A stretch of DNA of 64,000 nucleotides from Burkholderiales bacterium (GCA_036274735.1 DASUFD010000027.1:1710-65709), one strand, 5' to 3'. Counted from the first letter of the stretch, positions 8,607 to 54,217 are shown. A program made the numbers and translations. Notes: generated from the sequence alone by a model not told the origin.

Positions 8607-8632
8607 GGCCGCCTCCTGCAGAAGCCGCAAGT

Positions 8633-8917
8633 CTAAGGCTTTTTCGCCGGCGGCTCGATCTGGAAGAACACCTCGTCGCGGCGGATCATGCCGAGCTCGG
8701 AGCGCGCCCGTTCCTCGATCGCTTCGGTTCCCGTCTTCAGGTCGCGCACATCGGCCGCAAGCGCGGCATTGCGCGCGGCGAGCTTCCGGTTCTCGGCTCT
8801 CCGGCCGTCCAGCTCGCCGGCGATCTGCCACACCCGCAGCCATCCGCCCTTGCCGAACCACAACGGATACTGGATCAGCACGATCAGGGCGACGAAGATG
8901 GCGGCGAGGATTTTCAC
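8633..8917 (-). CDS. ftsB: cell division protein FtsB
   Basis: GTG at 8915-8917 ([25 protein letters not shown]...), 94 aa. One N-terminal TM followed by a coiled coil. Conserved position directly downstream of eno. Confidence 0.8.
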
Positions 8918-8921
8918 GCGC

Positions 8922-14680
<5,759 letters not shown>

Positions 14681-37917: not shown

Positions 37918-38685
37918 TTGGACAACACGACAAAAAGCGTCGCCGAAGCACGACAAAAAAAGAAGAACCTTCGTTCCGATCTCGGCTGGTCGACGACCGA
38001 TCGCATCGTCGTGCGCGGCAAGGATCTCCCGGGAGAGATCCTCGGGCGGGTGAATCTGGGCGATATGGCCTTCCTCGAGCTGACAGGCCGCCTCCCCGAG
38101 CCTCGAGAGTCGAAGCTTTTCAATGCCATGGTCGTCACCCTGGTCGAGCACGGCATGACGCCCAGTGCCCTGGCGGCACGCCTTACCTACCTCGGCGCGC
38201 CGGAGGCGATGCAGGCGGCGGTCGCGAGCGGTTTGCTGGGCCTGGGCAGCGTGTTCGTAGGCTCGATGGAAGGCGCGGCAAAGCTTTGCAGCGAAGCTCT
38301 CGCCGAGGGTGAGGCGGACATCGTCGATATCCTGGCCCGATACAAGCGCGTGCCCGGCCTCGGCCATCCGCTGCACAAGCCGGTCGATCCCCGCAGCGCG
38401 AGGCTGTTCGAGATCGCCCGGGAAACCGGCTACTACGGCAAATACTGCCGCCTCATGGAAGACCTGGCGCAGCGCAAGCAGCTGACCTTGAACGCAACGG
38501 GCGCGATCGGCGCGCTGGCTTGCGAGCTCGGCCTCGACTGGCGATGCGTGCGCGGCCTGGGCGTGATGGCGCGCGCGATCGGGCTGGTGGGCCACATTCT
38601 GGAAGAGGCCCGCGATCCGATGGCCGGGGAAATCTGGCACCGCGTCGAGGAGGAGGCTTCGGCGCATCTCAGGGACGAGCGATGA
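37918..38685 (+). CDS. citrate synthase-like protein (citryl-CoA lyase / ACL C-terminal-like)
   Basis: Domain text RIVVRGKDL...MAFLELTGRLPEPRE...LVEHGMTPSA...VPGLGHPLHK. The only upstream ATG (37651) lies inside pilG on the other strand. The in-frame TTG at 37918 has an AGGAC SD 7 nt upstream. Confidence 0.7.
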   Translation: MDNTTKSVAEARQKKKNLRSDLGWSTTDRIVVRGKDLPGEILGRVNLGDMAFLELTGRLPEPRESKLFNAMVVTLVEHGMTPSALAARLTYLGAPEAMQAAVASGLLGLGSVFVGSMEGAAKLCSEALAEGEADIVDILARYKRVPGLGHPLHKPVDPRSARLFEIARETGYYGKYCRLMEDLAQRKQLTLNATGAIGALACELGLDWRCVRGLGVMARAIGLVGHILEEARDPMAGEIWHRVEEEASAHLRDER

Positions 38686-39833
38686 ACCTCGCGCGCGACA
38701 ACTATCCCGAGCTGCGCGACGCCGTGCGGGCGCTTTGCGGCCAGTTCGACTCCGCCTACTGGCAGGCGATCGACGAAAAGCGGACCTACCCGGAGGCCTT
38801 TGTCGAGGCGCTGACCCAGGCCGGCTGGATGTCGGCGCTGATCCCCGAGGAATACGGCGGCTCGGGCCTCTCGCTCACCGAGGCCTCCGTGATCATGGAG
38901 GAAGTCAGCCGCTCCGGAGGCAACCCCGGCTCCTGCCACGGGCAGATGTACAACATGAACACGCTGCTGCGTCACGGCTCGCCGGAGCAGAAGAAGAAAT
39001 ACCTGCCGAAGATCGCGCGCGGCGAGTTGCGCCTGCAGGCGATGGGCGTCACCGAGCCCGGCGCAGGCACCGACACCACGAAGATCAAGACCGTAGCGGT
39101 GCGCAAGGGCGATCGCTACGTCGTGAACGGCCAGAAAGTGTGGACCTCGCGGCTGCAACATTCGGAGCTGATGATCCTGCTCACGCGCACGACGCCGCTC
39201 TCGGAGTTGAGCCGCAAGAGCGACGGCATGTCGATCTTCCTCGTCGACACGAAAAGCCAGGGACTGGAAGCGCGGCCGATCCGCAACATGCCCAATCACG
39301 AGACCAACCAGGTGTTCATCGACAACCTGGAGGTGCCCGTCGAGAACCGGATCGGCGAGGAAGGCAAGGGCTTTCGCTACATCCTCGACGGCCTCAACGC
39401 GGAGCGCATCCTCATCGCCGCCGAATGCATCGGCGACGGCTATTGGTTCGTGGAGAAAGCGACCCGCTACGCCTCGGAGCGCGTCGTTTTCGATCGCCCA
39501 ATCGGACAGAACCAGGGCATTCAGTTCCCGATCGCCGAGAGCTACATGGAGATCGAGGCGGCGAACCTGATGCGCTACAAGGCGGCGGCGCTCTACGATG
39601 CGCACAAGCCGTGCGGCGCCGAGGCGAACATGGCCAAGCACCTCGCAGCCAAGGCCTCGTGGGAAGCGGCCAACGTCTGCCTGCAGACCCACGGCGGGTT
39701 CGGCTTCGCCGCCGAGTACGACGTGGAGCGCAAGTTCCGGGAGAGCCGGCTCTACCTCGTAGCGCCGATCTCGACCAACCTCATCCTCTCCTACGTCGCC
39801 GAGCACGTGCTCGGCCTGCCCCGCTCGTTCTAG
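38682..39833 (+). CDS. acyl-CoA dehydrogenase
   Basis: Trimmed to the ATG at 38682 (ATGA overlap with the upstream stop), giving 383 aa. Motifs GVTEPGAGTDT and QTHGGFGFAAEYDVERKFRE. Confidence 0.9.
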   Translation: MNLARDNYPELRDAVRALCGQFDSAYWQAIDEKRTYPEAFVEALTQAGWMSALIPEEYGGSGLSLTEASVIMEEVSRSGGNPGSCHGQMYNMNTLLRHGSPEQKKKYLPKIARGELRLQAMGVTEPGAGTDTTKIKTVAVRKGDRYVVNGQKVWTSRLQHSELMILLTRTTPLSELSRKSDGMSIFLVDTKSQGLEARPIRNMPNHETNQVFIDNLEVPVENRIGEEGKGFRYILDGLNAERILIAAECIGDGYWFVEKATRYASERVVFDRPIGQNQGIQFPIAESYMEIEAANLMRYKAAALYDAHKPCGAEANMAKHLAAKASWEAANVCLQTHGGFGFAAEYDVERKFRESRLYLVAPISTNLILSYVAEHVLGLPRSF

Positions 39834-39846
39834 CGACGCTCGCCTC

Positions 39847-41160
39847 TCAGCGCCCGAGCGCGGGGAGCCAGGTCGCGATGAGCGGGAAAGCGATGATGAG
39901 GGCGATCAGGAGGAGCACGCAGGAGATGAACGGCACCGCGGCGAGGTAGATCTCGCGCATCGTGGTGCCCGGCGGCGCGACGCCCTTCATGACGAACAGC
40001 AGCAACCCGAACGGCGGCGTCGTGTAGCCGATCTCGAGCGAGAGCAGCATGATCAGGCCGAACCAGGTCAGGTCGAAGCCCAGGGTCTTGGCGAGGGGAA
40101 AGAAGATCGGCGCGGTGAGCAGCATCATCGAGAGCTGGTCCATGAAGCAGCCGAGGAAAAAAATGATGCCGATCATGACGAGCAGCATGCCGAGGGACGA
40201 GAAATGGAAGTTCGTCGCCCAGGCGATGAGGCCGCTCGAGGCGCCCGAGAAGGCGAGGATCTGGCTGAACGTCGCCGAGCCGAGGATGATGAGGAAGGCC
40301 ATTACCGTGACGCGCAGCGCCGCATCCACCGAGCGGCGGAAGCTCCTCCACGAGAGCGCGCGGTAGCAGGCGGCGAGCACGATGACGCCGAGGCAGCCGA
40401 CGGCGGCGGCTTCGGTGGGCGTCGCGTAGCCGGCCACCATGACTCCGATGACGAGCACGATGACGGCGAACATCGGCAGGATGTCGACCAGCACGAGGCG
40501 CGCCTTCTCGGCGAGCGAGGCGCGCTGCGCCGCGTAGGCGGGCGCGGCCTTCGGGTCGACGACGGTCCAGACGAAGATCAGCGCCGCGTACATCGTCGCG
40601 AGGAGCACCCCGGGGACGACGCCGGCGAGCAGCAGCGCGCCGACGTCGCTTCGCCCGAGCGTGGCGAGCAGCACCGCGAGCGCCGAGGGCGGGATGATGA
40701 CCGCCAGGCCCCCGGTGCCCATGATCGGGCCGATCGAGAGGTACTTGCTGTAGCCGCGGCGCATCATCTCCGGGACCATCAGCGAGCCGAGCAGGGCCGT
40801 CGAGCCCATGCTCGATCCCGAGAGCGCGGCAAAGCCGGTCCCGCCGACCACGGTCACGTAGGCGAGGCGCCCAGGAACGTTGCCCATCAACCGGTCGATG
40901 GCGTTGAACATCCGCGCCGCGAGGCCGGTGTGATAGAACAGATCGCCCATCAGCAGGAACATCGGGATCGGCACCAGCGCGAAGCTCGTCATCGCGCCGA
41001 ACCCGCTGTTCAGCATCTGCGCGACCCCGAGCGTGCCGCCCATGAAGACGTGAGCCGCGACGATGTTCGCGGCGAGGAACGCCATGGCGACCGGCATGCC
41101 GACCAGCATGAGCGCCACCAGCAGGCCGAACAGCAGCGCGATTGCCCAGTACCACTCCAT
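39847..41160 (-). CDS. TRAP transporter large permease (DctM family)
   Basis: 437 aa, highly hydrophobic, with DctM-like motifs. Confidence 0.9.
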   Translation of the reverse strand: MEWYWAIALLFGLLVALMLVGMPVAMAFLAANIVAAHVFMGGTLGVAQMLNSGFGAMTSFALVPIPMFLLMGDLFYHTGLAARMFNAIDRLMGNVPGRLAYVTVVGGTGFAALSGSSMGSTALLGSLMVPEMMRRGYSKYLSIGPIMGTGGLAVIIPPSALAVLLATLGRSDVGALLLAGVVPGVLLATMYAALIFVWTVVDPKAAPAYAAQRASLAEKARLVLVDILPMFAVIVLVIGVMVAGYATPTEAAAVGCLGVIVLAACYRALSWRSFRRSVDAALRVTVMAFLIILGSATFSQILAFSGASSGLIAWATNFHFSSLGMLLVMIGIIFFLGCFMDQLSMMLLTAPIFFPLAKTLGFDLTWFGLIMLLSLEIGYTTPPFGLLLFVMKGVAPPGTTMREIYLAAVPFISCVLLLIALIIAFPLIATWLPALGR

Positions 41161-41163
41161 CGC

Positions 41164-41628
41164 CTACTCGCCGGCCGTCAGGCCCGACCCGTACGGGCTC
41201 TCCCCGCGCACGAGGAGCCGCAAGAACTCGATCGCCATCATGCCGAAGGACAGCGGCATGAAGGCCATCAGCATCCAGCGCGGCATGTCGAAGGAGCGCA
41301 CGTCCTTCTCGTTGCCGAGAAAATCCTGGACGGTGATGGCGCCACCGAACCAGGCGAGGATCCCGGCGACCGCGATGCAGGCGACGACGACCGCCAGCAG
41401 CAGGGCGCGCTGCGCGCGCGGCGGAACCGCCGAGACCACCAGCTCGATGTAGATGTGGCCCTTCTCGCGCACCAGCCAGGGCGCGCCCAGCAGCGGGATG
41501 AGCAGCAGGAAATACTCGGTGAAGGTGAAGAAGTGCGCCGAGCTCTGGAAGCCGAGGTTGCGCAGCGCGACGTCGCTGACGATCATCGCCAGCATCGCGA
41601 CCATCAGCAGACCGGCGAGCCACGCCAT
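41164..41628 (-). CDS. TRAP transporter small permease (DctQ family)
   Basis: 154 aa with 4 hydrophobic segments. Lies 3 nt upstream of the large permease. Confidence 0.85.
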   Translation of the reverse strand: MAWLAGLLMVAMLAMIVSDVALRNLGFQSSAHFFTFTEYFLLLIPLLGAPWLVREKGHIYIELVVSAVPPRAQRALLLAVVVACIAVAGILAWFGGAITVQDFLGNEKDVRSFDMPRWMLMAFMPLSFGMMAIEFLRLLVRGESPYGSGLTAGE

Positions 41629-41677
41629 CCCGTAGAGGACGGCGCGATACGCTTTGCCGATCAGGGCGCGGTCCCGG

Positions 41678-42682
41678 CTACTTCGGCAGCGGGCCCGGGG
41701 TGAAGAGCTCGACGATCCGCTCGAAGTTCTCCATGCCGCCCGCCTTCTGCATGCGCTCCTTCATGCGCGCCAGGCTCGCCGAGCGCGCGCCCTCGACGAA
41801 GCGCTTCGAGGCCTCCGGCGACTGGGCGATCGTCTTGATGCCGCGCCGCTCGAGCTCCGCCTTCTCCTTCTGCCAGAGCTGCTGCAGCGCCGCCTCGCTC
41901 GAGACCTCGTGCTCGATCGTCACGCGCTGCAGGATCTCGCGTGTCTTCGGCGAGAGCGCGTTCCACTTCTTCAGGTTGACGAGGATGTGCAGGTCGGTGG
42001 AGAAGAAGTCCGGCAGGATCCGGTACTTCAGATAGCGGTCCCAGTTCAGGTCCATGAGGCCGATCTGCGTCCACGCCGTGATCTCCACCGTGCCGCGCTC
42101 GAGGGCCGTATAGAGGTCCGGCGAGTTGACGTTGATCACCTGCGCGCCAAGGTAATTGGTGAGGAAGGCGTTGTAGATGGGATGGCCGCGGACCTTGAAG
42201 CCGCGGATGTCGATGTGGCCGGTCGAGTCGAGCTTGGGCTCCTTGGTCGACCAAAGGTCGAAGCGGATGCCGCTGTCCACCCAGCCGAGGTTGTAGACGC
42301 CGATGCGCTGCTGGTGGATCTTGTTGAGCAGATCCATGCCGCCGTTCTTGCGCGCCGTCGGGCCGTCGATCGTCGAGGCGGAGACCGCGTCGCACTCCGG
42401 GACCTGCGCCGCGTAGAAGGCGCAGGCGGTGTAGATCATGTCGACCACGCCGCTGCGCACCGCGCCCGGCTGCTCCATCATCGGGATCGCCTCCGGGCCG
42501 CCGCGCACCTGTATGCTGAACACGCCCTGGCCCGCCGCGTTCGCCTTCTTCACGAACTCGAGGAAGCTGCGCGAATAGACGAGCGAAGCCGGAAATACGT
42601 GCGTCGCCGTGATGGTGTCGGCAGCGAAGGCCGAGGCCGAGCAGGCCAGGCCGAGCGCCGCGACGAAGCGCAATGCCTTCAT
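41678..42682 (-). CDS. TRAP transporter substrate-binding protein (DctP family)
   Basis: Trimmed to the ATG at 42680-42682, giving 334 aa. Signal peptide MKALRFVAALGLACSASAFA. GGAGGGGG SD. Confidence 0.85.
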   Translation of the reverse strand: MKALRFVAALGLACSASAFAADTITATHVFPASLVYSRSFLEFVKKANAAGQGVFSIQVRGGPEAIPMMEQPGAVRSGVVDMIYTACAFYAAQVPECDAVSASTIDGPTARKNGGMDLLNKIHQQRIGVYNLGWVDSGIRFDLWSTKEPKLDSTGHIDIRGFKVRGHPIYNAFLTNYLGAQVINVNSPDLYTALERGTVEITAWTQIGLMDLNWDRYLKYRILPDFFSTDLHILVNLKKWNALSPKTREILQRVTIEHEVSSEAALQQLWQKEKAELERRGIKTIAQSPEASKRFVEGARSASLARMKERMQKAGGMENFERIVELFTPGPLPK

Positions 42683-42746: not shown

Positions 42747-44216
42747 GTGACGACGGTCTTTACTGCGTTCGCGGAAACCGCCCGCGCGCACGGCGCCAAG
42801 CCATTCCTGCAAGTCCTCCCTGAAGAGGTCGAGCTCACGTACGGGCAGGCCTACGAGCGTGTCGAAGCGCTGGCGCGCCGTTACGCGGCGCGCGGCTTCG
42901 GCGTCGGCCACCGCGTCGCTCTCAAGCTGGCGAACTGCAGCGCTTTCCTGCTTCATTTCCTCGCGCTCAACCGCGTCGGCGCATCGGTGGTGCCGCTCAA
43001 CCCCGACTGCCGGCCGGCCGAGCTCGAGTACGTGCTCGAGCACAGCGAGGCGGTGCTGGTCGTCGACTCACCCGCCGTCGACGGCTTCGATCCGCCCCCC
43101 GCGCCGAAGCCCGGCGAGGCGAGCGAATGCGCGCTGCTTTACACCTCGGGGACCACGGGCAAGCCGAAGGGCTGCCTGCTCAGCAACTTCTACTTCCTCT
43201 ACGTAGGGCGTCGCTATGTGGAGGAAGGCGGGCTGTGCGAGCTGCGCTTCGGCGAAGAGCGCCTCATCACGCCCCTGCCGCTCTTCCACATGAACGCGCT
43301 CGCCGTGTCGACGACGGCGATGATCCTGACCGCCGGCTGTGTCGTCCAGCTCGATCGCTTCCACCCGCGCACGTGGTGGCGCGACGTGGTGCGCTCGCGC
43401 GCGACGATCGTGCACTACCTCGGCGTCATGCCCGCCATCCTGATGCGGCAGCCGGCTTCGGCCGATGAGCGCGCGCACGAGGTGCGCTTCGGCTTCGGCG
43501 CCAACGCCAACCCCGCAGACCACGCCGCCTTCGAGCAGCGTTTCGGTTTCCCGCTGATCGAGGCCTGGGCGATGACCGAGACCGGCGGCGCCGGCTACAT
43601 CGCCGCGAGCCGCGAGCCGCGGCACGTCGGCACGCGCTGCATCGGCTTTCCTCGCGACGATCTCGATTTCCGCATCGAGGAGGACACGGGCGAGCTGCTG
43701 GTGCGCCAGCGCGGCGCGGATCCGAGGCGCGGCTTCTTCTCGGGTTACCTGAAGGACGATCGCGCGACCGCGGAAGCGTGGCGCGACGGCTGGTTCCACA
43801 CCGGCGACTGCATGCGCCTGGGCGCCGACGGCGCGCTGCATTTCGTCGATCGGCGCAAGAACATCATCCGCCGCTCCGGCGAGAACATCGCCGCGCTCGA
43901 GGTCGAGGCCGCGCTCGCCGGCCATCCCGCCGTCGCGCAGGTCGCGGTCATCGCCAAGCCGGACGAGGTGCGCGACGAGGAGGTGATGGCGTGCGTCGTG
44001 CTCGCGCCCGAGCATGCGCCGACGCAGAGCACCGCGCTCTCCATCCAGGACTGGTGCCTCGAGCGCCTCGCCTACTTCAAGGCGCCGGGGCATGTCGCGT
44101 TCCTCGCCGAGCTTCCCGTGACCTCGACCAACAAGGTGCAGAAGGCGCGCCTCGCCGACTTCGCCATCGCGCCCGAGCGCAGCTTCGACCTGCGCTCGCG
44201 CAAGCGCCGCCCGTGA
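42747..44216 (+). CDS. AMP-dependent acyl-CoA synthetase/ligase
   Basis: Motif LYTSGTTGKPKG. The track start at 42609 overlaps the dctP 5' end. The GTG at 42747 (VTTVFTAFAETARAHG...) is preferred, with GTG 42696 as an alternative. Confidence 0.8.
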   Translation: MTTVFTAFAETARAHGAKPFLQVLPEEVELTYGQAYERVEALARRYAARGFGVGHRVALKLANCSAFLLHFLALNRVGASVVPLNPDCRPAELEYVLEHSEAVLVVDSPAVDGFDPPPAPKPGEASECALLYTSGTTGKPKGCLLSNFYFLYVGRRYVEEGGLCELRFGEERLITPLPLFHMNALAVSTTAMILTAGCVVQLDRFHPRTWWRDVVRSRATIVHYLGVMPAILMRQPASADERAHEVRFGFGANANPADHAAFEQRFGFPLIEAWAMTETGGAGYIAASREPRHVGTRCIGFPRDDLDFRIEEDTGELLVRQRGADPRRGFFSGYLKDDRATAEAWRDGWFHTGDCMRLGADGALHFVDRRKNIIRRSGENIAALEVEAALAGHPAVAQVAVIAKPDEVRDEEVMACVVLAPEHAPTQSTALSIQDWCLERLAYFKAPGHVAFLAELPVTSTNKVQKARLADFAIAPERSFDLRSRKRRP

Positions 44217-45373
44217 GCCGACGCGGCTACGAGGGGGTTGCCGTCGCGGCGCCGGTAACCGTGCCCTACGTGCGCTACTCGATCCGCGCCGCGCACTGGT
44301 GGCTGGCGAGGGCGCTCGCTTCGCTGTTGCAGGAGTCGGGTCTGGAGAAGGAAGAGCTGGACGGTCTCGCCGTGTCGAGCTTCACGCTCGCGCCCGATAC
44401 GGCGATCGGCCTGACCCAGCACCTGGGCCTCTCGCCGCGCTGGCTCGACCACGTTCCGTTCGGCGGCGCGAGCGGCGTGGTGATGCTCCGGCGCGCGGCG
44501 CGCGCCGTGCAGGCCGGCGACGCCGAGGTCGTCGCGTGTCTCGCCGGGGACACGAATCACGTCGATTCCTTCCGCCTCACGCTCGCGAATTTCAGTCAGT
44601 TCGCGCGCGACGCCGTATATCCCTACGGCGCCGGCGGGCCGAACGCGAGCTTCGCCTTCCTCACCGCCTATTACATGAGCCACTACGGCGCCACGCGCGA
44701 GGACTTCGGCAAGCTGTGCGTGGCGCAGCGGGCCAACGCGCTGAAATTTCCGCACGCGCTTTTCAAGAACCCGCTGACGCTGCAGGAGTACCTTGGCGCG
44801 CGGGCGATCGCCGAGCCCCTGCACCTCTTCGACTGCGTCATGCCCTGCGCCGGCGCCGATGCCTTCCTCGTCATGAGCACCGATCGCGCTCGCTCCCTGG
44901 GTCTCAAGTCCTGTCGCCTTTTGGCAACCATCGAACGGCACAACGCCTTTGCGGCCGACCCGGTGCAGATGCGCGCCGGATGGGCTCTCGATCGCGCCGA
45001 CCTCTACCAGCAGGCGGGTGCCGGCCCGCAGGACATGGACTTCGTCGAAACGTACGACGACTATCCGGTGATCTCGCTCATGCAGCTCGAGGATCTGGGC
45101 TTCTGCGGCAAGGGCGAAGGCGCCGCCTTCGTGCGTCGCCACAGCTTCACCTGGGACGGCAGCTTTCCCCTCAATACGTCGGGCGGACAGCTCTCCGTCG
45201 GTCAAGCCGGCGCGGCGGGCGGTTCGCTCGGCATGGTCGAGGCGCTGCGCCAGCTCACCGGGCAGGCGGCGGCACGCCAGGTCCAGGGCGCAAAGCTCGG
45301 CCTGGTCAGCGGCTTCGGCATGATCAACTTCGATCGCGGCCTCGGGTCGGGCGCCGCCATTCTTTCGTGCTAG
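44213..45373 (+). CDS. thiolase-like (SCP-x/Ltp-type) protein
   Basis: GTG at 44213 overlaps the ligase stop (GTGA), giving 386 aa. Thiolase-fold C-terminal motifs (NTSGGQLSVGQAGAAGG). The expected nucleophile position reads FGGASG rather than C-x-S/T-G. Confidence 0.8.
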   Translation: MSRRGYEGVAVAAPVTVPYVRYSIRAAHWWLARALASLLQESGLEKEELDGLAVSSFTLAPDTAIGLTQHLGLSPRWLDHVPFGGASGVVMLRRAARAVQAGDAEVVACLAGDTNHVDSFRLTLANFSQFARDAVYPYGAGGPNASFAFLTAYYMSHYGATREDFGKLCVAQRANALKFPHALFKNPLTLQEYLGARAIAEPLHLFDCVMPCAGADAFLVMSTDRARSLGLKSCRLLATIERHNAFAADPVQMRAGWALDRADLYQQAGAGPQDMDFVETYDDYPVISLMQLEDLGFCGKGEGAAFVRRHSFTWDGSFPLNTSGGQLSVGQAGAAGGSLGMVEALRQLTGQAAARQVQGAKLGLVSGFGMINFDRGLGSGAAILSC

Positions 45374-46602
45374 AGCGGCCCAAGCGCAAGAATCCGGTCC
45401 TGCGCACGCGCCTGCCGACGCTGCCGCCGGCGGCGCGCAGCCGCATCGCGCTCGGTTTGACGGCCGCGGCCGCGCTCGGACGTTTCGAGCTGCAGCAGTG
45501 CACAAGCTGCGGCACGGTGCAGTACCCGCCGCGCGAGGCATGCCAGAAGTGCCTTTCCGTCAAACTCGCCTGGCGGACGCAGCCGCAAGGCGGCGAGCTG
45601 CTCTCGGCAAGCGTCCTGCACCACAGCAACGACCTCTTCTTCCGCGAGCGCCTCCCCTGGCGGCTCGGCCTGGTGCGCCTTGACTGCGGACCGATCGTGG
45701 TCGCGCACCTGCACGAGGAAGTGGCGCCGGCGCCTTCGCGGGTCAACGTGCAGGTCAAGCTCGATCGCGCCGGCCAAGCGGTGATGGTGGCGCTGCCAAA
45801 CGAGGAGAATGCGAACATGGCCGAAGACCGCCAGCTGCGCGAATTCACCTGCGACCCGAAGTTCCGCAAGGTGCTCGTCACCGACGGCAAGACGCGGCTC
45901 GGCCAGTCCCTGGTCCATGCTTTCGCCGCCGCCAAGGCGGAGCTCATCTGGGTCGGCTACGCCGAGCCGTGGAAGAAGTTCGGCGGCTTCGACGAGCTGA
46001 AAAGCCTGCCGCAGGTCACGCTCCTGCCGCTCGACGTCACCGACTCGAAGAACGTGCGCGAGGTCGCAGGCGAGATCGGCGGCAAGGTCGACATCCTGGT
46101 GAACAATGCCGAGGTGCATCGCACCTATGGCATCGCCAACCGGCCCGGCGTCGATGCGGCGCGCGCCGAGATGGATGTCAACTACTTCGGCCTGCTGCGC
46201 CTCGCGCAGGAGTTCGGCCCGGCGATGCGCTCGCGCGGCGCCGACGGGCTGGCGAGCGCGGTCGCCTGGGTGAACGTGCTCTCGATCTATGCGCTCGCCA
46301 ACTTCCCGCAGCACGGCACTTTCTCCGCGTCGAAGGCCGCCGCCTACTCGCTCGCGCAGTGCCTGCGCGCCGAGATGCGTCCCGCGGGCGTGCGCGTGGT
46401 CAACGTCTTCCCCGGCCCGATCGACGACGAATGGAACCAGCTCCTGCCGCCGCCCAAGCTCGCGCCGGCCAATCTCGCCAATGCGATCGTCAAAGCGCTG
46501 CAGGAAGGCGTCGAGGATGTCTATCCGGGCGACGTCGCGCAGGAATGGCTCGCGCGATGGCGCGACAATCCGAAGGCTTTGGAAAGGGAACTCTCGACAT
46601 GA
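45367..46602 (+). CDS. DUF35 (Zn-ribbon/OB-fold) protein fused to an SDR-like domain
   Basis: GTG at 45367 overlaps the thiolase stop by 7 nt, giving 411 aa. Zn ribbon CTSCGTVQYPPREACQKC. No in-frame stop before the SDR-like half (KVLVTDGKTRLGQ...NNAEV...FSASK). Confidence 0.75.
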   Translation: MLERPKRKNPVLRTRLPTLPPAARSRIALGLTAAAALGRFELQQCTSCGTVQYPPREACQKCLSVKLAWRTQPQGGELLSASVLHHSNDLFFRERLPWRLGLVRLDCGPIVVAHLHEEVAPAPSRVNVQVKLDRAGQAVMVALPNEENANMAEDRQLREFTCDPKFRKVLVTDGKTRLGQSLVHAFAAAKAELIWVGYAEPWKKFGGFDELKSLPQVTLLPLDVTDSKNVREVAGEIGGKVDILVNNAEVHRTYGIANRPGVDAARAEMDVNYFGLLRLAQEFGPAMRSRGADGLASAVAWVNVLSIYALANFPQHGTFSASKAAAYSLAQCLRAEMRPAGVRVVNVFPGPIDDEWNQLLPPPKLAPANLANAIVKALQEGVEDVYPGDVAQEWLARWRDNPKALERELST

Positions 46603-47381
46603 GCGCGCTTGCGCAGCTCGCGCAGGGTCTCGCGACCGGCAAGATCAGGGTCGTCGACCTCACCGAGACCCTCTCGCCCGAGTTCCCCCACATCTCGCTG
46701 CCGCCCGAAATGGGCCAGGCCTGGCCCTTCCGCATCGAGGAGGTCTCGCACTACGACGAGCGCGGGCCGGCGTGGTACTGGAACAACTTCTCCTGCGGCG
46801 AGCATACCGGCACGCACTTCGACGCTCCCGTGCACTGGATTTCCGGCAAGGACCTGGCGAACAACGCGACCGACAGCATTCCGGTCGATCGCTTCATCGG
46901 CCCGGCGTTCGTCATCGACTGCAGCCAGGAGTCGGCGGCCGACCCCGACTTCCTGCTCACCAAGCCCTACCTCCTCGAGTGGGAAAAGCGGCACGCCCGG
47001 ATCGCGCCGCGCTCGTGGGTGCTCATGCGCACCGACTGGTCGAAGCGCAGCACGGATGCCGAGGCCTACCAGAACTACGACGAGACGGGTCAGCACACGC
47101 CTGGCCCCGACGCCGACGCCGTGCGCTTTCTCGTAGAGGAGCGCGACGTGCTCGGCTTCGGCACCGAGTCGATCGGCACCGACGCCGGCCAGGCGTACCA
47201 CCTTCGGCCGCCCTACCCCTGCCATTACTACATGCATGGCGCCGGCCGCTACGGCCTGCAGTGCCTTACCAACCTCGACAAGCTGCCGCCGACCGGCGCC
47301 GTCGTCTTCGCCGCGCCGCTCAAGATACGCAACGGAAGCGGCAGTCCGCTTCGGGTGCTCGCGCTAGTGGAGGAGAAATGA
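46599..47381 (+). CDS. cyclase-family metal-dependent hydrolase (kynurenine formamidase/isatin hydrolase-like)
   Basis: ATGA overlap, 260 aa. Motif CGEHTGTHFDAPVHW. Confidence 0.88.
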   Translation: MSALAQLAQGLATGKIRVVDLTETLSPEFPHISLPPEMGQAWPFRIEEVSHYDERGPAWYWNNFSCGEHTGTHFDAPVHWISGKDLANNATDSIPVDRFIGPAFVIDCSQESAADPDFLLTKPYLLEWEKRHARIAPRSWVLMRTDWSKRSTDAEAYQNYDETGQHTPGPDADAVRFLVEERDVLGFGTESIGTDAGQAYHLRPPYPCHYYMHGAGRYGLQCLTNLDKLPPTGAVVFAAPLKIRNGSGSPLRVLALVEEK

Positions 47382-48151
47382 GCAAGTACAGGATCTGGTT
47401 CCAAGGAGCCACCGACCGTGCGCTCATGGCGCCGTACATCGCCAAGGTCGAAGCGCATTTCAGGGCGGTGCTCGATCCGGAGTTCGACTTCACCTTCAAC
47501 ACGACGACGCCGCCGGCGACGACGACGCACGCGCTCACCGAGTACCGGGTCGGGCGCAACTTCATTCGCAATGCCGTGGAAGCGGAGCGCCAGGGATACG
47601 ACGTCGTGGCGGTCACGCACTTCCAGGATCCCGGGCTTGCGGAAGCGAAGTCCGCCGTCGACATTCCCGTGCTCGGCTTGGGCGAGACGACGCTGCATTT
47701 CTGCCTCACGCTCGGACGCAAGCTGGGGCTCGTCACGATCAATCCCGCCTTCATCCCCTGGCACGAGGACCAGATCGTCAAGTACGGGATGCAGGGCCGG
47801 GTGGTCGGCGTGCGCGCGGTCGACGCGAGCGTGCTCGACTACATCGCCGCCTTCGCGGATGCGGAGGCATTCAGGAAATTGAACCCGCTCTGGGAGCGCG
47901 AGTGCCGCGCCCTGCTCGACGCCGGCGCCGATGTCATCGTCCCCGCCGGCGGCATCCCGATGATGCTCTTTGGCGGCGCGCACGGCGCGAGCATCGACGG
48001 CGCGCCGATCGTCAACGGCATGACGGTCATGGCGAAGAGCGCGGAGCTGGCCGTCAAGCTCAAGCGTGACGCCGGCATCGCGGTGAGCCGGCGCTCGAAC
48101 TTTGCGCGCCCGCCGGAAAAGGCGCTCAACGAGTTCATGGAGCAGGGTTGA
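47378..48151 (+). CDS. Asp/Glu/hydantoin racemase-family protein
   Basis: ATGA overlap, 257 aa. VVAVTHFQDPGL...DIPVLGLGE...GADVIVPAGGIP resembles the hydantoin racemase fold. Confidence 0.75.
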   Translation: MSKYRIWFQGATDRALMAPYIAKVEAHFRAVLDPEFDFTFNTTTPPATTTHALTEYRVGRNFIRNAVEAERQGYDVVAVTHFQDPGLAEAKSAVDIPVLGLGETTLHFCLTLGRKLGLVTINPAFIPWHEDQIVKYGMQGRVVGVRAVDASVLDYIAAFADAEAFRKLNPLWERECRALLDAGADVIVPAGGIPMMLFGGAHGASIDGAPIVNGMTVMAKSAELAVKLKRDAGIAVSRRSNFARPPEKALNEFMEQG

Positions 48152-49389
48152 CTCCGCAAACCCTGGCGCAAAAACTCGTCGCCCGCGCCGCCGGCAAAGA
48201 GAGCGTCACGCCCGGCGAGATCGTCACCTGCAAGGTCGACCTCGCCATGGTTCACGACTCGAGCGGGCCGCGCCGCCTCAAGCCGGTGCTCGAGCGTCTC
48301 GGTGCGAAAGTGTGGGACCCCGCGAGGCTCGTGGTGATCACCGACCACTACGTCCCCGCCTACGACGAAGAGAGCCGCAAGATCCTGCGCATCGCGCGCG
48401 AATGGGTACGCGAGGCGGGCATAGAGCGCTTCCACGACGCCGAGGGCATCTGCCACGTGGTGCTGCCCGAGCGCGGCTATCTCCGCCCCGGCATGTTCGC
48501 CGTCGGCGGCGACAGCCATTCGCCGACCGGCGGCGCTTTCGCCGCGTACATGTTCGGCGTGGGTGCGACCGAGATGCTCGGCGTCGTGGTCACGGGCAAG
48601 ATCTGGCTCAAGGTGCCGCACACCATCGCGATGCATTTCGACGGCGCCCTCGCCGAAGGCGTGTGCGCCAAGGACGTCATGCTCTTCCTCATCGGCCGCT
48701 TCGGCATGGACGGGGGCGGCTATCACGCGGTCGAGTACCGCGGACCGGCGATCCGCAAGCTCGAAATGCAGGAGCGCATGACCCTGTGCAACATGACTGC
48801 CGAGCTCGGCGGCCAGACCGGCCTCATCGCCTCCGACGACGTGACCCGCGACTATCTGGGCGGCGAGATCGAGCTCTGGGACAGCGACCGGGACGCCGAG
48901 CTGCTGGCCGAGCACCGCTTCGATGCCGCGCACATCGAGCCGCAGGTCGGCGCGCCGCACAGCCCGGCGAACAGCCGCCCGGTGAGCGAGTTTCGCGAAA
49001 AGGTCGACGTGGCCTACATCGGCGCGTGCACCGGCGCGAAGCTCGCCGACCTGCGCATGGCGGCCCGCGTGCTGAAAAGCCGGAAGTCCCGGGCGAAGCT
49101 GCTCGTCGCCCCCGCGAGCGTGCGCGATCGGCAGGCGGCCGAGCACGAGGGCACGATCAAGGTCCTCCTCGAGGCCGGCGCCGAGCTCCTGCCCAGTTCG
49201 TGCGGTATGTGCGCGGGCTACGGCGAGCAGCTGCTCGCCGAGAACACGGTGGCGATCTCGAGCACCGCGCGCAACTTCAAGGGGCGCATGGGCTCCGCCT
49301 CGGCGCAGGTCTACCTCGCCTCCCCGTACACCGTCGCCGCCTCGGCCCTCGCCGGCCGCATCGCCGACCCGCGCGAGGTGCTGGCGTGA
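48148..49389 (+). CDS. aconitase-family dehydratase large subunit (LeuC/homoaconitase-like)
   Basis: TTG start overlaps the preceding stop (TTGA), giving 413 aa. Motifs VDLAMVHDSSGP, GGDSHSPTGGA and the Fe-S cysteines in IGACTGAK and SSCGMCAG. Confidence 0.88.
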   Translation: MTPQTLAQKLVARAAGKESVTPGEIVTCKVDLAMVHDSSGPRRLKPVLERLGAKVWDPARLVVITDHYVPAYDEESRKILRIAREWVREAGIERFHDAEGICHVVLPERGYLRPGMFAVGGDSHSPTGGAFAAYMFGVGATEMLGVVVTGKIWLKVPHTIAMHFDGALAEGVCAKDVMLFLIGRFGMDGGGYHAVEYRGPAIRKLEMQERMTLCNMTAELGGQTGLIASDDVTRDYLGGEIELWDSDRDAELLAEHRFDAAHIEPQVGAPHSPANSRPVSEFREKVDVAYIGACTGAKLADLRMAARVLKSRKSRAKLLVAPASVRDRQAAEHEGTIKVLLEAGAELLPSSCGMCAGYGEQLLAENTVAISSTARNFKGRMGSASAQVYLASPYTVAASALAGRIADPREVLA

Positions 49390-49874
49390 AGGCATGGGTC
49401 TTCGGCGACAACGTGGATACCGACGCCATTGCGCCCGGCCGCTACATGAAGCTCGGCATCGAGGAGATCGCGCGGCACAGCATGGAAACCGTGTTGCCGG
49501 AATTCGCCTCTTCGGTGAAGAAAGGCGATTTCGTCGTCGCCGGACGCAATTTCGGCGCCGGGTCCTCGCGCGAGCAGGCGCCCGAAGCGCTCAAGCACCT
49601 GGGCATCGCGGCGCTCATCGCCGAATCCTTCGCCGGCCTCTTCTATCGCAACGCCATCAATCTCGGCCTGCCGGCGCTCGTCTGCGCGCGGGCGAAGCGC
49701 ATCCGGGCCGGCGACGAGCTCGAGCTCGACTGCGCGCGCGGCGAGCTCAGGAACCTGAGCACCGGTGAAGAGCTCGGCTGCGAGCCGATTCCGGCGTTCC
49801 TCATGACCCTCATTCGCGACGGCGGCCTGGTGCCGCATCTCGAGAAAAGGCTGCGATGCAATACGACCTCCTGA
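49386..49874 (+). CDS. aconitase-family dehydratase small subunit (LeuD-like)
   Basis: GTGA overlap, 162 aa. Motifs GDNVDTDAIAPGRY and GRNFGAGSSREQAPEAL. Confidence 0.85.
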   Translation: MKAWVFGDNVDTDAIAPGRYMKLGIEEIARHSMETVLPEFASSVKKGDFVVAGRNFGAGSSREQAPEALKHLGIAALIAESFAGLFYRNAINLGLPALVCARAKRIRAGDELELDCARGELRNLSTGEELGCEPIPAFLMTLIRDGGLVPHLEKRLRCNTTS

Positions 49875-51316
49875 TCAAGAACGTTCGCGTTGCGCGCCCC
49901 GGTGACTCCGTGGTGCGCGAGGCGGACATCGGCATTACCGGCGGAACGTTCGCCGGCATCGGCCCGAACCTCGGCACGGCGGCCAAGACGGTCTACGACG
50001 GCAAGGGCCGCCTCGCCTTCCCCGGGGTAGTCGACGCGCACATGCACTGCGGCATCTACTCGCCGCTCGCCGAGGACGCGGTGAGCGAGAGCCGCGCCGC
50101 CGCGCAGGGCGGCGTCACCTCGAGCCTGAACTACTTCCGCACCGGCCAGTACTACCTGAACAAGGGCGGGCCCTATCTCGATTTCTTCCCCGAAGTGCTG
50201 CGGATCTCGGAAGGACGTTTCCACGTCGACTACGGCTACCACCTCGCGCCGATGGATCGAGCGCATATCGCCGAGATCCCGGCGTTGATCGAGAAGCACG
50301 GCGTCGCATCCTTCAAGATCTTCATGTTCTACGGCTCCCACGGCCTGCACGGGCGCTCGGACAGCCAGCGCGACTTCCTCATGATCGCGCCGGAAGAGCG
50401 TTACGACCTCGCGCACTTCGAGTTCATCATGCGCGGCCTGCAGGCGGCGCGCGAGCGCTTCCCCGGCAAGGCCTCGCAGCTCAGCCTTTCGCTGCACTGC
50501 GAGACGGCGGAGATCATGACGGCCTATACGCGCATCGTGGAAACCGAGCGCAAGCTCGACGGGCTCGCCGCCTATCATGCCGCTCGCCCGCCGCACTCCG
50601 AGGGCCTTGCCGTGTTCATCGCCGCTTACCTCGCCAACGAGGCGGCGCTGCCGACGATCAACCTGCTGCACCTCTCCTCGCGCAAGGCGCTGCACGCGGC
50701 GCTGCAGATGGCCGAGGTCTTACCGCACATCGACTTCCGTCGCGAGGTCACCATCGGCCATCTCGTTCTCGATGTGAATTCCCCTTCGGGCGTGCTGGCC
50801 AAAGTAAACCCGCCGATCCGGCCGCGCGAGGACGTCGAGTACCTTTGGGAACAACTGCTCGCCGGCAAGGTCGACTGGGTGGTGAGCGACCATGCGTGCT
50901 GCCGGCACGAGACCAAGGCGGCGAAGAATGCCCTGGGCAACATCTGGCTGGCGAAGTCGGGCTTCGGCGGCACGGAATACCTGCTGCCCGCGCTGGTCTC
51001 CGAAGGGGCGAAGCGCGGCCTCTCGTACAACCGCATCGCCGAGCTCACCAGCCGCAACCCGGCGCGCCGCTTCGGGCTCAACTCGAAGGGCGACATTGCC
51101 GACGGGCTGGACGCCGACCTCGCGCTCGTCGACCCGCGCGAGTCCTGGACCGTGCGCGCCGCCGATTCCCAGTCCACCCAGGGCTATACGCCGTTCGAAG
51201 GAGTCGAGCTGGGCGCTAGGGTGAAGGCGACGTTCCTGCGCGGCGAGCTGATCTGCGAGAACGGGAACGTTCTCGGCAAGCCGCGCGGCCGCTATCTGCA
51301 CCGGCCGACCCGCTGA
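49856..51316 (+). CDS. cyclic amidohydrolase (dihydropyrimidinase/hydantoinase family)
   Basis: 486 aa. Motifs GVVDAHMH, SFKIFM (carbamylated-Lys context), LHCE and VVSDHACC. The 5' end overlaps the LeuD-like gene by 19 nt. Confidence 0.88.
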   Translation: MQYDLLIKNVRVARPGDSVVREADIGITGGTFAGIGPNLGTAAKTVYDGKGRLAFPGVVDAHMHCGIYSPLAEDAVSESRAAAQGGVTSSLNYFRTGQYYLNKGGPYLDFFPEVLRISEGRFHVDYGYHLAPMDRAHIAEIPALIEKHGVASFKIFMFYGSHGLHGRSDSQRDFLMIAPEERYDLAHFEFIMRGLQAARERFPGKASQLSLSLHCETAEIMTAYTRIVETERKLDGLAAYHAARPPHSEGLAVFIAAYLANEAALPTINLLHLSSRKALHAALQMAEVLPHIDFRREVTIGHLVLDVNSPSGVLAKVNPPIRPREDVEYLWEQLLAGKVDWVVSDHACCRHETKAAKNALGNIWLAKSGFGGTEYLLPALVSEGAKRGLSYNRIAELTSRNPARRFGLNSKGDIADGLDADLALVDPRESWTVRAADSQSTQGYTPFEGVELGARVKATFLRGELICENGNVLGKPRGRYLHRPTR

Positions 51317-52185
51317 TGGAAGGCAAGCGCAAAGCGCTGGCGGAGCGGCTGCGCAAGCCCGGGCTGGTCGTGGCGCCGGGCGTCTTCGACCTCATCTCGG
51401 CGAAGATCGCCGACCGCATGGGATTCGACTGCCTGTATGCGACGGGGTATGGCATCGTCGCTTCCTATCTCGGCCTGCCCGACGCCGGGCTCGCCACGTA
51501 CACCGACATGGTGGCAAGGGTCGCGCAAATCGCCGCCAGGACGAGCACCCCGCTCGTCGCCGACGCCGACACCGGCTACGGCGGCCTGCTCAACGTCCAG
51601 CACACGGTGCGCGGCTACGAAGACGCGGGCGCCTGTGCGATCCAGCTCGAGGACCAGGAATTCCCGAAGAAGTGCGGGCACATGCTCGGACGGCGAGTGC
51701 TCGCCACCGAAGAGATGGCCGCCAAGGTGCGCGTGGCCGTGGAGAGCCGCCGGGATCGGGATTTCCTCGTCGTGGCGCGCACCGATGCGCGCACCTCGCT
51801 CGGGCTGGACGAGGCGCTGCGCCGCGGCGAGCGCTACCTGCGCGCGGGCGCCGACGTGCTTTTCATCGAGTCGCCGGAATCGCTCGAGGAGATGCGCCGC
51901 ATCGGCCGGGCGTTCGAAGGGGTGCCGCTCCTCGCCAACATGGTGCACGGCGGCGGCCGCACTCCGCTCGTAGACCGGGCGACGCTGCGCGAGCTCGGCT
52001 ATCGCATCGCCATCTACCCGGCGCTCGGCTTCCTCGCCGTGGCCGCTGCCTTCGAAACGGCATTGCAGGAGCTGAAGGCGGACAAGGCGGTGTCGCTGCA
52101 GTTGTACGACTTCAAGGCCTTCAGCGCGCTCATGGGCTTCGATTGGGTGAGCGAGTTCGACCGACGCTACCGGGACGCGGACTGA
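51316..52185 (+). CDS. isocitrate lyase/PEP mutase-family enzyme (methylisocitrate / dimethylmalate lyase-like)
   Basis: 289 aa. TGATG junction. Motifs DADTGYG and EDQEFPKKCGHM. Confidence 0.88.
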   Translation: MEGKRKALAERLRKPGLVVAPGVFDLISAKIADRMGFDCLYATGYGIVASYLGLPDAGLATYTDMVARVAQIAARTSTPLVADADTGYGGLLNVQHTVRGYEDAGACAIQLEDQEFPKKCGHMLGRRVLATEEMAAKVRVAVESRRDRDFLVVARTDARTSLGLDEALRRGERYLRAGADVLFIESPESLEEMRRIGRAFEGVPLLANMVHGGGRTPLVDRATLRELGYRIAIYPALGFLAVAAAFETALQELKADKAVSLQLYDFKAFSALMGFDWVSEFDRRYRDAD

Positions 52186-53488: not shown

Positions 53489-54217
53489 ATGGATCTCGGC
53501 TTGAAGGGCAAATCGGTCCTCGTCACCGGCGGCTCGAAAGGCATCGGCCTCGCGTGCGCCAAGGCATTCGCCGGCGAGGGATGCCGCGTGCACATCGCTG
53601 CTCGCGACCCGCAGCGATTGAAGAGCGCCCGCGAAGAGATCCTGGGCGAGGCGACCGCGCATTCGGTGGACCTGCGGGACGGCGCGGCGCTGCGCCGGCT
53701 CGCCGCGGATTGCGCGGAGGTCGACATCCTCGTGAACAACGCCGGCGACATCCCGGGCGGCACGCTCGAGACGGTCGACGAGGCGAAGTGGCGCCATGCC
53801 TGGGAGCTCAAGGTGTTCGGCTTCATCAACCTCTCGCGCGAGCTCTACTCGCGGATGAAGGCGCGCAAGAGCGGCGTCATCGTCAACGTGATCGGCATGG
53901 CCGGGGAAACACATCCGTTCGAGTACATCTGCGGCGCGGTCGGCAACGCCGGGCTCGCCGCATTCACCAAGGCGCTCGGCAAGGGCGCAAAAGAGAGCGG
54001 CGTGCGCGTGGTCGGCGTGCATCCGCCCTCGACGCGCACCGACCGCATCGTCACGCTGATGAAGGCTTCGGCCAGGGCAAGGTTCGGCGACGAGAGCCGC
54101 TATGCGGAGCTGATGGGCAATGTGATCGAGCCCGAGCAGGTCGGCGACATGGTGGCCTTCCTTGCCTCGCCGAGGGCCGGGCAGCTTTCCGGCGTCGTCG
54201 TCAACCTCGGCGCCTAG
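53489..54217 (+). CDS. SDR-family oxidoreductase
   Basis: 242 aa. Motifs KSVLVTGGSKGIG and NNAGD. Confidence 0.85.
   Translation: MDLGLKGKSVLVTGGSKGIGLACAKAFAGEGCRVHIAARDPQRLKSAREEILGEATAHSVDLRDGAALRRLAADCAEVDILVNNAGDIPGGTLETVDEAKWRHAWELKVFGFINLSRELYSRMKARKSGVIVNVIGMAGETHPFEYICGAVGNAGLAAFTKALGKGAKESGVRVVGVHPPSTRTDRIVTLMKASARARFGDESRYAELMGNVIEPEQVGDMVAFLASPRAGQLSGVVVNLGA

Follow-up and report, generated by a model that had tools for sequence, protein, structure and literature searches.

An iad-type gene pair of a Burkholderiales genome predicted to encode a retro-aldolase and its partner, a fusion of DUF35 with a degenerate SDR domain

Described systems and the cassette in the window

The iad pathway for degradation of the auxin indole-3-acetic acid allows Variovorax and its relatives to lower auxin around roots, and it is now being engineered into other root bacteria (PMC12633357). 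Within the iad locus of Variovorax paradoxus CL014 (PMC9613470, PMC10374108, PMC12633357, PMC12852158), iadG and iadH are genetically required for the consumption of dioxindole-3-acetate. Jiang et al. report that deletion of iadF, iadG, iadH or iadI leads in each case to accumulation of C10H9NO4, dioxindole-3-acetate, and that C7H7NO and C8H7NO3, which is the isatinate formula, occur further down the pathway; the functions given are based on annotation, IadG being named a 'ketothiolase' and IadH an 'alcohol dehydrogenase' (PMC12633357). The present analysis concerns a stretch of 64,000 nucleotides from a Burkholderiales bacterium (GCA_036274735.1 DASUFD010000027.1:1710-65709), hereafter the window, whose own numbering is used for all positions. 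Two adjacent genes in it, one for a thiolase-fold protein and one for a fusion of a DUF35 module with a short-chain dehydrogenase/reductase (SDR) domain, are the orthologues of iadG and iadH. The function of the pair is already known at the gene level, by genetics, an identity missed in an earlier note made from the sequence (the original prediction). To our knowledge, the removal of the side chain in the iad pathway has never been explained chemically. We propose, with a probability of roughly 0.65, that IadG is a retro-aldolase and IadH its DUF35 anchor, the SDR half of which is non-catalytic.

In the Ltp2, Sal, BbsAB and archaeal thiolase/3-hydroxy-3-methylglutaryl-CoA synthase systems, DUF35 binds the thiolase-fold subunit and shapes its cleft (PMC12329534). 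For CtSal–CtShy of Comamonas testosteroni, the retro-aldolase of the bile-acid C5 side chain (PDB entry 9MYR), the DUF35 partner is also encoded next door and also fused to another domain; Tyr302 and Cys304 of a YDCY motif are catalytic, Gln347 and Gln352 support Cys304, and a glycine occupies the position of the thiolase nucleophile (PMC12329534). TcLtp2–ChsH2(DUF35) of Thermomonospora curvata, a steroid C3 side-chain aldolase (6OK1), likewise combines a thiolase fold devoid of the cysteine with DUF35, and cleaves a β-hydroxyacyl-CoA with a tertiary hydroxyl, at steroid C17, into a ring ketone and a short acyl-CoA. In BbsAB, the benzoylsuccinyl-CoA thiolase (7PXP), it is again a DUF35 protein, BbsA, that partners the thiolase-fold enzyme.

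The two genes of the window lie within a cassette of four, in a region with a G+C content of about 68%:

42747..44216, + strand: IadF-like AMP-forming acyl-CoA synthetase (CoA ligase); Pfam AMP-binding and AMP-binding_C; start codon checked
44213..45373, + strand: IadG-like thiolase-fold protein, 386 aa; Pfam Thiolase_C_1; putative retro-aldolase
45367..46602, + strand: IadH-like DUF35–SDR fusion, 411 aa; Pfam zf-ChsH2, OB_ChsH2_C and adh_short
45463..45759, + strand: DUF35 module (C4 zinc ribbon and OB fold) of the fusion; Pfam zf-ChsH2 3e-11, OB_ChsH2_C 6e-11
45802..45819, + strand: internal Shine-Dalgarno-like GAGGAG (45802-45807) and ATG of Met151 (45817-45819), with 9-nt spacing
45868..46599, + strand: SDR-fold domain with degenerate cofactor and catalytic site; Pfam adh_short 9e-24
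46599..47381, + strand: IadI-like isatin hydrolase, 260 aa; Pfam Cyclase

Start and stop codons overlap at every junction, the TGA of the CoA ligase gene with the GTG of the thiolase-like gene (GTGA), the TAG of the latter with the GTG of the fusion gene (GTGCTAG), and the stop of the fusion gene with the ATG of the isatin hydrolase gene (ATGA), which suggests that the four genes are translationally coupled. Identity to the Variovorax proteins amounts to 50% for IadF, 69% for IadG and 72% for IadH, the last two with the same motif states as in strain CL014; the isatin hydrolase-like protein shares 69-78% identity with the corresponding proteins of Variovorax-type loci and matches isatin hydrolase A over its full length (E=4e-111; PDB 5NNB/5NNA/5NMP). 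Whereas the F-G-H-I order is the same as in CL014, the window cassette lies apart from iadCDE/J, and its neighbours are genes for a TRAP transporter and another five enzymes. In V. paradoxus NBRC 15149 the order iorA, iorB, reductase, Rieske alpha, (beta), AMP ligase, thiolase-like, DUF35/SDR, cyclase, SDR, binding protein (locus L055) matches the iadA-K2 order tabulated for V. boronicumulans (PMC12852158). Scanning 80 fetched loci by tblastn with the window's neighbour proteins recovered the CoA ligase in 69, the thiolase-like gene in 77 and the DUF35–SDR fusion in all 80, with a cyclase (isatin hydrolase-like) gene following the fusion gene in 75; the thiolase-like and DUF35–SDR genes are adjacent, with overlapping start and stop, in every locus examined. 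Orthology and synteny are directly established, as are the motif states and the fold described below. Membership of a steroid side-chain or benzylsuccinate pathway is ruled out on gene context.

The IadG-like protein and cleavage of the side chain

The sole Pfam match of the 386-aa protein is the C-terminal thiolase domain Thiolase_C_1 (E=8e-36), and the protein scores far below the cut-off of every NCBIfam thiolase or lipid-transfer model. Its relatives in the PDB are:

9MYR: CtSal, the bile-acid side-chain retro-aldolase bound to Shy DUF35; E=3e-54 (best)
4U4E: named only 'Thiolase'; E=5e-45
6OK1: TcLtp2 with ChsH2-DUF35; E=9e-41
7YVY: nucleophile Cys kept (aCASG); E=1.7e-36
7PXP: BbsB, named thiolase subunit; E=1.3e-27

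The best solved relatives are thus the DUF35-dependent retro-aldolases CtSal and TcLtp2, ahead of BbsB, and the precedents chosen by the original prediction (Ltp2 with ChsH2, and BbsAB) were apt. Residue states were taken from HMMER alignments to the true thiolases 7YVY and BbsB. Gly85, in GGASG (44462-44476), aligns with the nucleophile Cys of 'aCASG'; Y281-D-D-Y284 (45053-45064) aligns with HDAF, the acid/base Cys of HDCF being absent; and Gln331, in GGQLSVGQAG (45182-45211), aligns with the His of the thiolase G-H-P motif. BbsB, the weaker match, in contrast keeps HDAF and GHP where aligned. The nucleophile site reads GGASG or a near variant in 76 orthologues, none of them having Cys in place of Gly85, and nearly all of these 76 retain GQAG (one has GQPG); YDDY is present in 75/75 orthologues and, in addition, in every examined partner of a DUF35–SDR gene. 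The earlier claim of a thiolase-like protein lacking its Cys nucleophile (FGGASG) is therefore borne out. Moreover, the alignments to true thiolases rule out a catalytic Cys at a shifted position, and no shifted His rescues thiolase catalysis either; the other conserved cysteines (C109, C169, C208, C212 and C298) sit at positions judged non-catalytic.

Comparing the protein with the two retro-aldolases, Tyr281 of YDDY aligns with CtSal Tyr302 and TcLtp2 Tyr294, and equivalents of Sal Gln347 and Gln352 are retained. The protein shares with CtSal the Gly at the nucleophile site, the Tyr of YDxY and both Gln, whereas the YDCY of CtSal is replaced by YDDY, the essential Cys304 being Asp in the window protein. 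The more distant TcLtp2 has YDHF and Tyr344 where the window protein has YDDY and Gln331. Judged by these residues, the IadG-like protein appears to fit the retro-aldolase branch of the superfamily, yet neither of its described clades (Sal and Ltp2).

That IadG is a true ketothiolase (EC 2.3.1.16), acting after IadH has oxidised the 3-hydroxyacyl-CoA to a 3-oxoacyl-CoA, is what the database and literature annotation says, and the thiolase fold agrees with it. This assignment is already contradicted by sequence: the nucleophile Cys, the His and the Cys of HDCF are absent in all orthologues, the scores lie far below all NCBIfam thiolase cut-offs, and the catalytic site of the SDR domain, described below, is degenerate. 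The chemistry also stands against it. Dioxindole-3-acetyl-CoA is a β-hydroxyacyl-CoA whose β-carbon bears a tertiary alcohol (the hydroxyl carbon is quaternary) and is not oxidisable to a 3-oxoacyl-CoA, and thiolysis is therefore impossible. We thus consider a ketothiolase very improbable; judging from the sequences, both 'ketothiolase' and 'alcohol dehydrogenase' are incorrect as published names.

In the retro-aldolase scheme that we favor, IadF would form the CoA thioester of dioxindole-3-acetate (3-hydroxy-2-oxindole-3-acetate), and IadG, as an enzyme of the Sal/Ltp2 type, would convert dioxindole-3-acetyl-CoA to isatin (C8H5NO2) and acetyl-CoA, a cleavage that would be balanced without a cofactor. 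Tyr281 is the likely base, and Asp283 would occupy the place of the Sal Cys acid. The proposed logic is the same as that of TcLtp2, applied to an oxindole, whereas the substrate of CtSal is a steroid. IadI would then hydrolyse isatin to isatinate, whose formula C8H7NO3 was detected, and decarboxylation and oxidation of isatinate would give C7H7NO and anthranilate. The C8H7NO2 (dioxindole) that has been reported would stem from a side reaction in which, when IadI is lacking, isatin is reduced by IadJ or by host reductases. IadH would act as an obligate partner, its DUF35 zinc ribbon and OB fold binding IadG as ChsH2-DUF35 does with Ltp2 and Shy-DUF35 with Sal, and the genetic requirement for iadH would follow if the DUF35 module anchors IadG. 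We infer the retro-aldol reaction from the chemistry of the substrate, the isatin hydrolase encoded downstream and the published metabolites of the mutants; our literature search turned up no report of dioxindole-3-acetyl-CoA being split in this way.

Should IadG indeed be a retro-aldolase, side-chain removal would proceed independently of NAD(P)H and free CoA, with isatin as its actual product, and the DUF35 anchor would account for the need for iadH. Aldolases of the Ltp2/Sal type would then be found beyond steroids for the first time, with YDDY as a new catalytic motif. The fusion would in turn provide a clear natural example of a dehydrogenase domain retained as a structural part, and hundreds of database entries named 'acetyl-CoA acetyltransferase' or 'SDR family NAD(P)-dependent oxidoreductase' would probably carry a wrong name. 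A putative cofactor-free retro-aldolase with YDDY, its DUF35–pseudo-SDR anchor and a possible second product of iadH are new with respect to the literature searched: Jiang et al. (PMC12633357), Ma et al. 2023 and Conway et al. 2022 make no mention of DUF35, of the missing Cys or of an aldolase, nor does the iad literature (the Variovorax papers) mention a degenerate SDR.

The DUF35–SDR fusion and its degenerate half

According to Pfam, the zf-ChsH2 ribbon covers residues 33-64 of the fusion, OB_ChsH2_C residues 69-131 and adh_short residues 168-356. The zinc-ribbon motifs are CTSC (45499-45510) and CQKC (45541-45552), and the four cysteines C45/C48/C59/C62 are invariant in a set of 30 diverged representatives. 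An AlphaFold2 model of the 411 residues, all-β between residues 41 and 144, has a mean predicted local distance difference test value (pLDDT) of 92.3 and a predicted template modelling score (pTM) of 0.92, so that both halves are modelled as one rigid body. Foldseek matches the SDR half to many SDRs with a probability of 1.00, the best being 5U4S (TM 0.93, normalised to 5U4S; 34% identity). The comparison with CtShy reveals three differences: the DUF35 ribbon is of the C4 type whereas that of CtShy is C3H1, the fusion partner is a C-terminal pseudo-SDR instead of a MaoC hydratase, and the two parts are modelled as rigidly packed whereas those of CtShy are flexibly linked.

All these domains are present in more than 120 full-length homologues (407-420 aa, 82-94% identity), and a profile-free search of 1.8 billion cluster representatives yielded dozens of full-length fusions down to 34% identity. 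Relatives occur in at least 484 species genomes, most of them from Burkholderiales and many of them from cultured Variovorax; the DUF35–SDR fusion is very common in Burkholderiales. The open reading frame is continuous in a set of 81 orthologues from species genomes as well as in the 30 distant representatives, and a sequencing or assembly error or a hidden stop between the halves is ruled out by its continuity in every homologue. A CxxC...CxxC zinc ribbon and OB fold running without a stop into an SDR-like domain is what the original prediction had described, and the Pfam matches, the invariant cysteines and the uninterrupted reading frames agree with it on both points; it had added that such a fusion had not been seen described, and our literature search likewise found no paper on a DUF35–SDR fusion. 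BbsC of the BbsCD dehydrogenase is a catalytically inactive SDR subunit; unlike in the fusion, the DUF35 and pseudo-SDR components of BbsAB and BbsCD are separate proteins in separate complexes.

Within the SDR half, the cofactor loop reads TDGKTRLG (45880-45903) and the NNAG motif NNAE (46102-46113); Ser306 (46282-46284) is followed 13 residues later, at the classical Ser–Tyr spacing, by FSASK (46321-46335), in which Phe319 takes the Tyr position and Lys323 is present. The fixed spacing rules out a shifted Tyr. Throughout the 81 orthologues the loop has the form T-D-G-K-[TS]-x-x-G, with Asp for the first Gly of TGxxxGxG in all, NNAG is of the NNAE type and the catalytic Ser is kept, the YxxxK site being FSASK in 71, YSASK in 9 and FSASM in 1. 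Divergence goes further among the 30 representatives: the Gly-rich loop is absent in 27, the YxxxK site drifts through FSASK, YSAAE, ADASH, FSAVQ, HSAAH, SAASQ and others, and canonical TGxxGGIG, NNAG and YCASK occur only in a small clade (P0159 and P0166). In the ADASH representative, at 52% identity, the fusion gene still has a YDDY thiolase-like gene on one side and a cyclase gene on the other, so that this module can do without the catalytic residues. The three altered motifs reported by the original prediction, including the Tyr-to-Phe change, are confirmed, and the SDR half is degenerate across the family. Mean identity among orthologues is nevertheless 77% for the SDR half against 70% for the DUF35 half, and the possibility that the SDR half is a decaying pseudogene remnant is ruled out since it is the more conserved half and folds confidently. 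Degenerate motifs combined with strong conservation of the domain have the signature of a pseudo-enzyme with its structural role kept; the SDR fold would serve as a structural or assembly domain and would neither bind NAD(P) nor perform redox chemistry. The case against cofactor binding rests mainly on the conserved Asp and Glu at two glycine positions.

The closest relative of the SDR half in fold and sequence, 5U4S, is a stand-alone SDR of Burkholderia cenocepacia from the NCBIfam PRK08264 group. It aligns with 46009-46566 of the window and also lacks the Tyr, with Leu at this position (LSASK); in contrast to the window domain it is unfused, keeps NNAG and binds NADP, and no alignment with the window protein was obtained over its N-terminal cofactor loop. 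Loss of the Tyr may be older than the fusion, or may be found among free SDRs of the PRK08264 group.

Several observations weigh against a cofactor-free retro-aldolase anchored by a non-catalytic partner. The second catalytic residue of both described aldolases is absent from IadG, with Asp283 at the position of Sal Cys304 and Gln331 at that of Ltp2 Tyr344. Ser306 and Lys323 are retained in the SDR half, and NADP is present in the crystal structure of 5U4S, a protein whose own YxxxK site is LSASK; loss of the Tyr alone is therefore no proof of lost cofactor binding. The one experimental paper describes the IadFGH step as 'reductive removal' of the side chain and gives C8H7NO2, with two H more than isatin, as its product (PMC12633357), which would fit an active reductase. 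The cassette stands in an operon with other enzymes, neither the window nor its metagenome-assembled genome (MAG) holds linked iadCDE oxygenase, iadJ and MarR regulator genes, and no IadD orthologue was found in the MAG, which is 78.5% complete; the substrate could therefore be a related compound. Finally, the reaction of IadG, its complex with IadH, the lack of activity in the SDR half and the existence of a second product are inferences.

Part of these observations would be accounted for if the SDR half of IadH were an active, atypical NAD(P)H-dependent oxidoreductase interconverting isatin and dioxindole just after or just before the C–C cleavage, the step being truly 'reductive'. C8H7NO2 accumulates both in a strain expressing iadCDEFGH_JK2 and in ΔiadI (PMC12633357), Ser and Lys are kept in a strongly conserved domain, NADP is bound by 5U4S, and the fusions P0159 and P0166, with all canonical motifs, are paired with a YDDY thiolase-like protein, so that an aldolase with a carbonyl reductase is plausible as the ancestral logic. 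On the other hand, Asp replaces the first Gly in 81/81 orthologues, two of the three Gly of the loop are lost, the Gly of NNAG is Glu, and Phe stands at the catalytic Tyr position in 72/81 and interchanges freely with Tyr; loci that keep the thiolase-like, fusion and cyclase trio can lack Tyr as well as Lys (ADASH, HSAAH, SAASQ). The next enzyme is moreover an isatin hydrolase and C8H7NO3 fits isatinate, so that reduction of isatin would work against the pathway, and the strain making C8H7NO2 contains the canonical SDR IadJ, with host reductases as another presumable source. An active oxidoreductase therefore appears unlikely. The further idea that the thiolase became an aldolase when the SDR died is unsupported: the canonical-motif fusion P0159 is already found beside a Cys-less YDDY partner.

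Distant fusions with canonical motifs, following a Cys-less YDDY thiolase-like gene, are seen in two loci (L086, 2949-9574, and L087), where a family III CoA-transferase and a TctCBA transporter come next; apparently another, uncharacterised pathway makes use of the two-gene module there, perhaps with an active reductase.

The fusion gene of the window contains, upstream of the codon for Met151, a Shine-Dalgarno-like element whose duplex with the anti-Shine-Dalgarno sequence is calculated at -8.9 kcal/mol. In 75 orthologues the duplex upstream of the Met151 codon averages -7.9 kcal/mol (89% at or below -6), against a mean of -2.1 kcal/mol at 465 other in-frame internal ATGs of the same genes and a median of -5.3 kcal/mol at the 5' start. 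Orthologues of the E-G-S type maintain the element with the rare codons GAA-GG[G/A]-AG[T/C]: the Gly codon is GGG or GGA in 39/40, compared with 17% gene-wide (GGC/GGT 83%), and the Ser codon is AGT in 26/36, AGT making up 6% of Ser codons in the same genes. The binomial value of 3e-29 for this codon bias overstates independence, the loci being related; synonymous sites at the element are clearly held, and this conservation at the nucleotide level is directly observed. The element is weaker or absent in more distant fusions. A free SDR-like product of 261 aa starting at Met151 may therefore be made in addition. An internal start near 45818 had been put forward by the original prediction as a circumstance speaking against the fusion: a conserved Shine-Dalgarno-like element does precede the ATG at 45817, which speaks strongly, if indirectly, for an internal ribosome-binding site there, but the fusion is not abolished, and the full chain must still be made because no stop separates the halves in any orthologue.

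It is possible, though speculative, that iadH is a programmed two-product gene in a channelled IadFGHI assembly. The DUF35–SDR chain, translationally coupled to iadG, would dock on the aldolase dimer, while the conserved internal ribosome-binding site would also yield the free pseudo-SDR; the free subunits would join the tethered domains, or the active SDR IadJ as in BbsC/BbsD, to complete dimers or tetramers of the SDR type, and the resulting metabolon would hand reactive isatin directly to the hydrolase. As an alternative within this two-product scheme, the decayed Rossmann fold could have taken on a new task, the binding of the ADP moiety of CoA.

Genomic setting and substrate

The cassette is flanked by genes that distinguish it from the Variovorax loci:

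39847-41160, - strand: dctM, TRAP transporter; Pfam DctM
41164-41628, - strand: dctQ, TRAP transporter; Pfam DctQ
41678-42682, - strand: dctP, TRAP transporter; Pfam DctP
47378-48151, downstream of iadI: racemase-fold protein
48148-49389, downstream of iadI: LeuC-like, part of a LeuCD-like dehydratase
49386-49874, downstream of iadI: LeuD-like, part of the same LeuCD-like dehydratase
49856-51316, downstream of iadI: amidohydrolase
51316-52185, downstream of iadI: phosphoenolpyruvate (PEP)-mutase/isocitrate lyase (ICL)-family lyase

The TRAP genes (39847..42682) are divergent from the cassette and encode a candidate importer of a carboxylate substrate; they lie beside it in 13-14 of the 80 loci, all from the window's own clade. 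Downstream of iadI, the first four of the five genes spanning 47378-52185 have overlapping or abutting starts and stops. All five accompany the cassette in the window's own clade only (the racemase gene in 17/80 loci, the others in at most 10) and are absent from Variovorax iad loci. The cassette with TRAP genes and five further enzymes is common to the closest MAGs.

This different ten-gene operon, with TRAP, racemase-fold, LeuCD-like, amidohydrolase and ICL/PEP-mutase lyase genes, without the IadCDE oxygenase and conserved in context within the clade, makes it conceivable that the window cassette acts on another substrate, for instance another 3-hydroxy-3-substituted lactam acid imported by TRAP. 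The IadF identity of just 50% and the lack of an IadD orthologue in the MAG point in the same direction. Such a change of substrate nevertheless seems improbable, given the match of IadI to characterised isatin hydrolases (E=4e-111) and the identity of about 70% between IadG and IadH and the Variovorax proteins. Orthologues of IadD, IadE and IadJ (61-66%) are moreover present in five genomes of the same genus, on contigs other than those of iadFGHI; all five have IadH, whereas three genomes without IadH lack IadD-E-J as well. One further genome of the genus, 96% complete, has IadH without such an IadD. The iad pathway thus seems to be split into at least two loci in the host genus, and direct uptake of oxidised auxin catabolites through TRAP is possible. 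The MAG of the window is 78.5% complete. One of its contigs, C42 (3124 bp), stops within an iorA-like gene (2553-3122) that shares 66% identity with residues 1-200 of Variovorax IadA, and an assembly gap has probably removed the remainder of an iad-type locus.

IadD, IadE and IadJ are encoded together in a same-genus locus (L085, on G015:C5) at 7990-10459, as well as in L081 and L084. In the window itself, a canonical SDR of 242 aa is encoded downstream of the operon (53489-54217) and is not among the best own-genome matches to Variovorax IadJ, and an acyl-CoA dehydrogenase gene (38520-39833) lies upstream of the TRAP genes.

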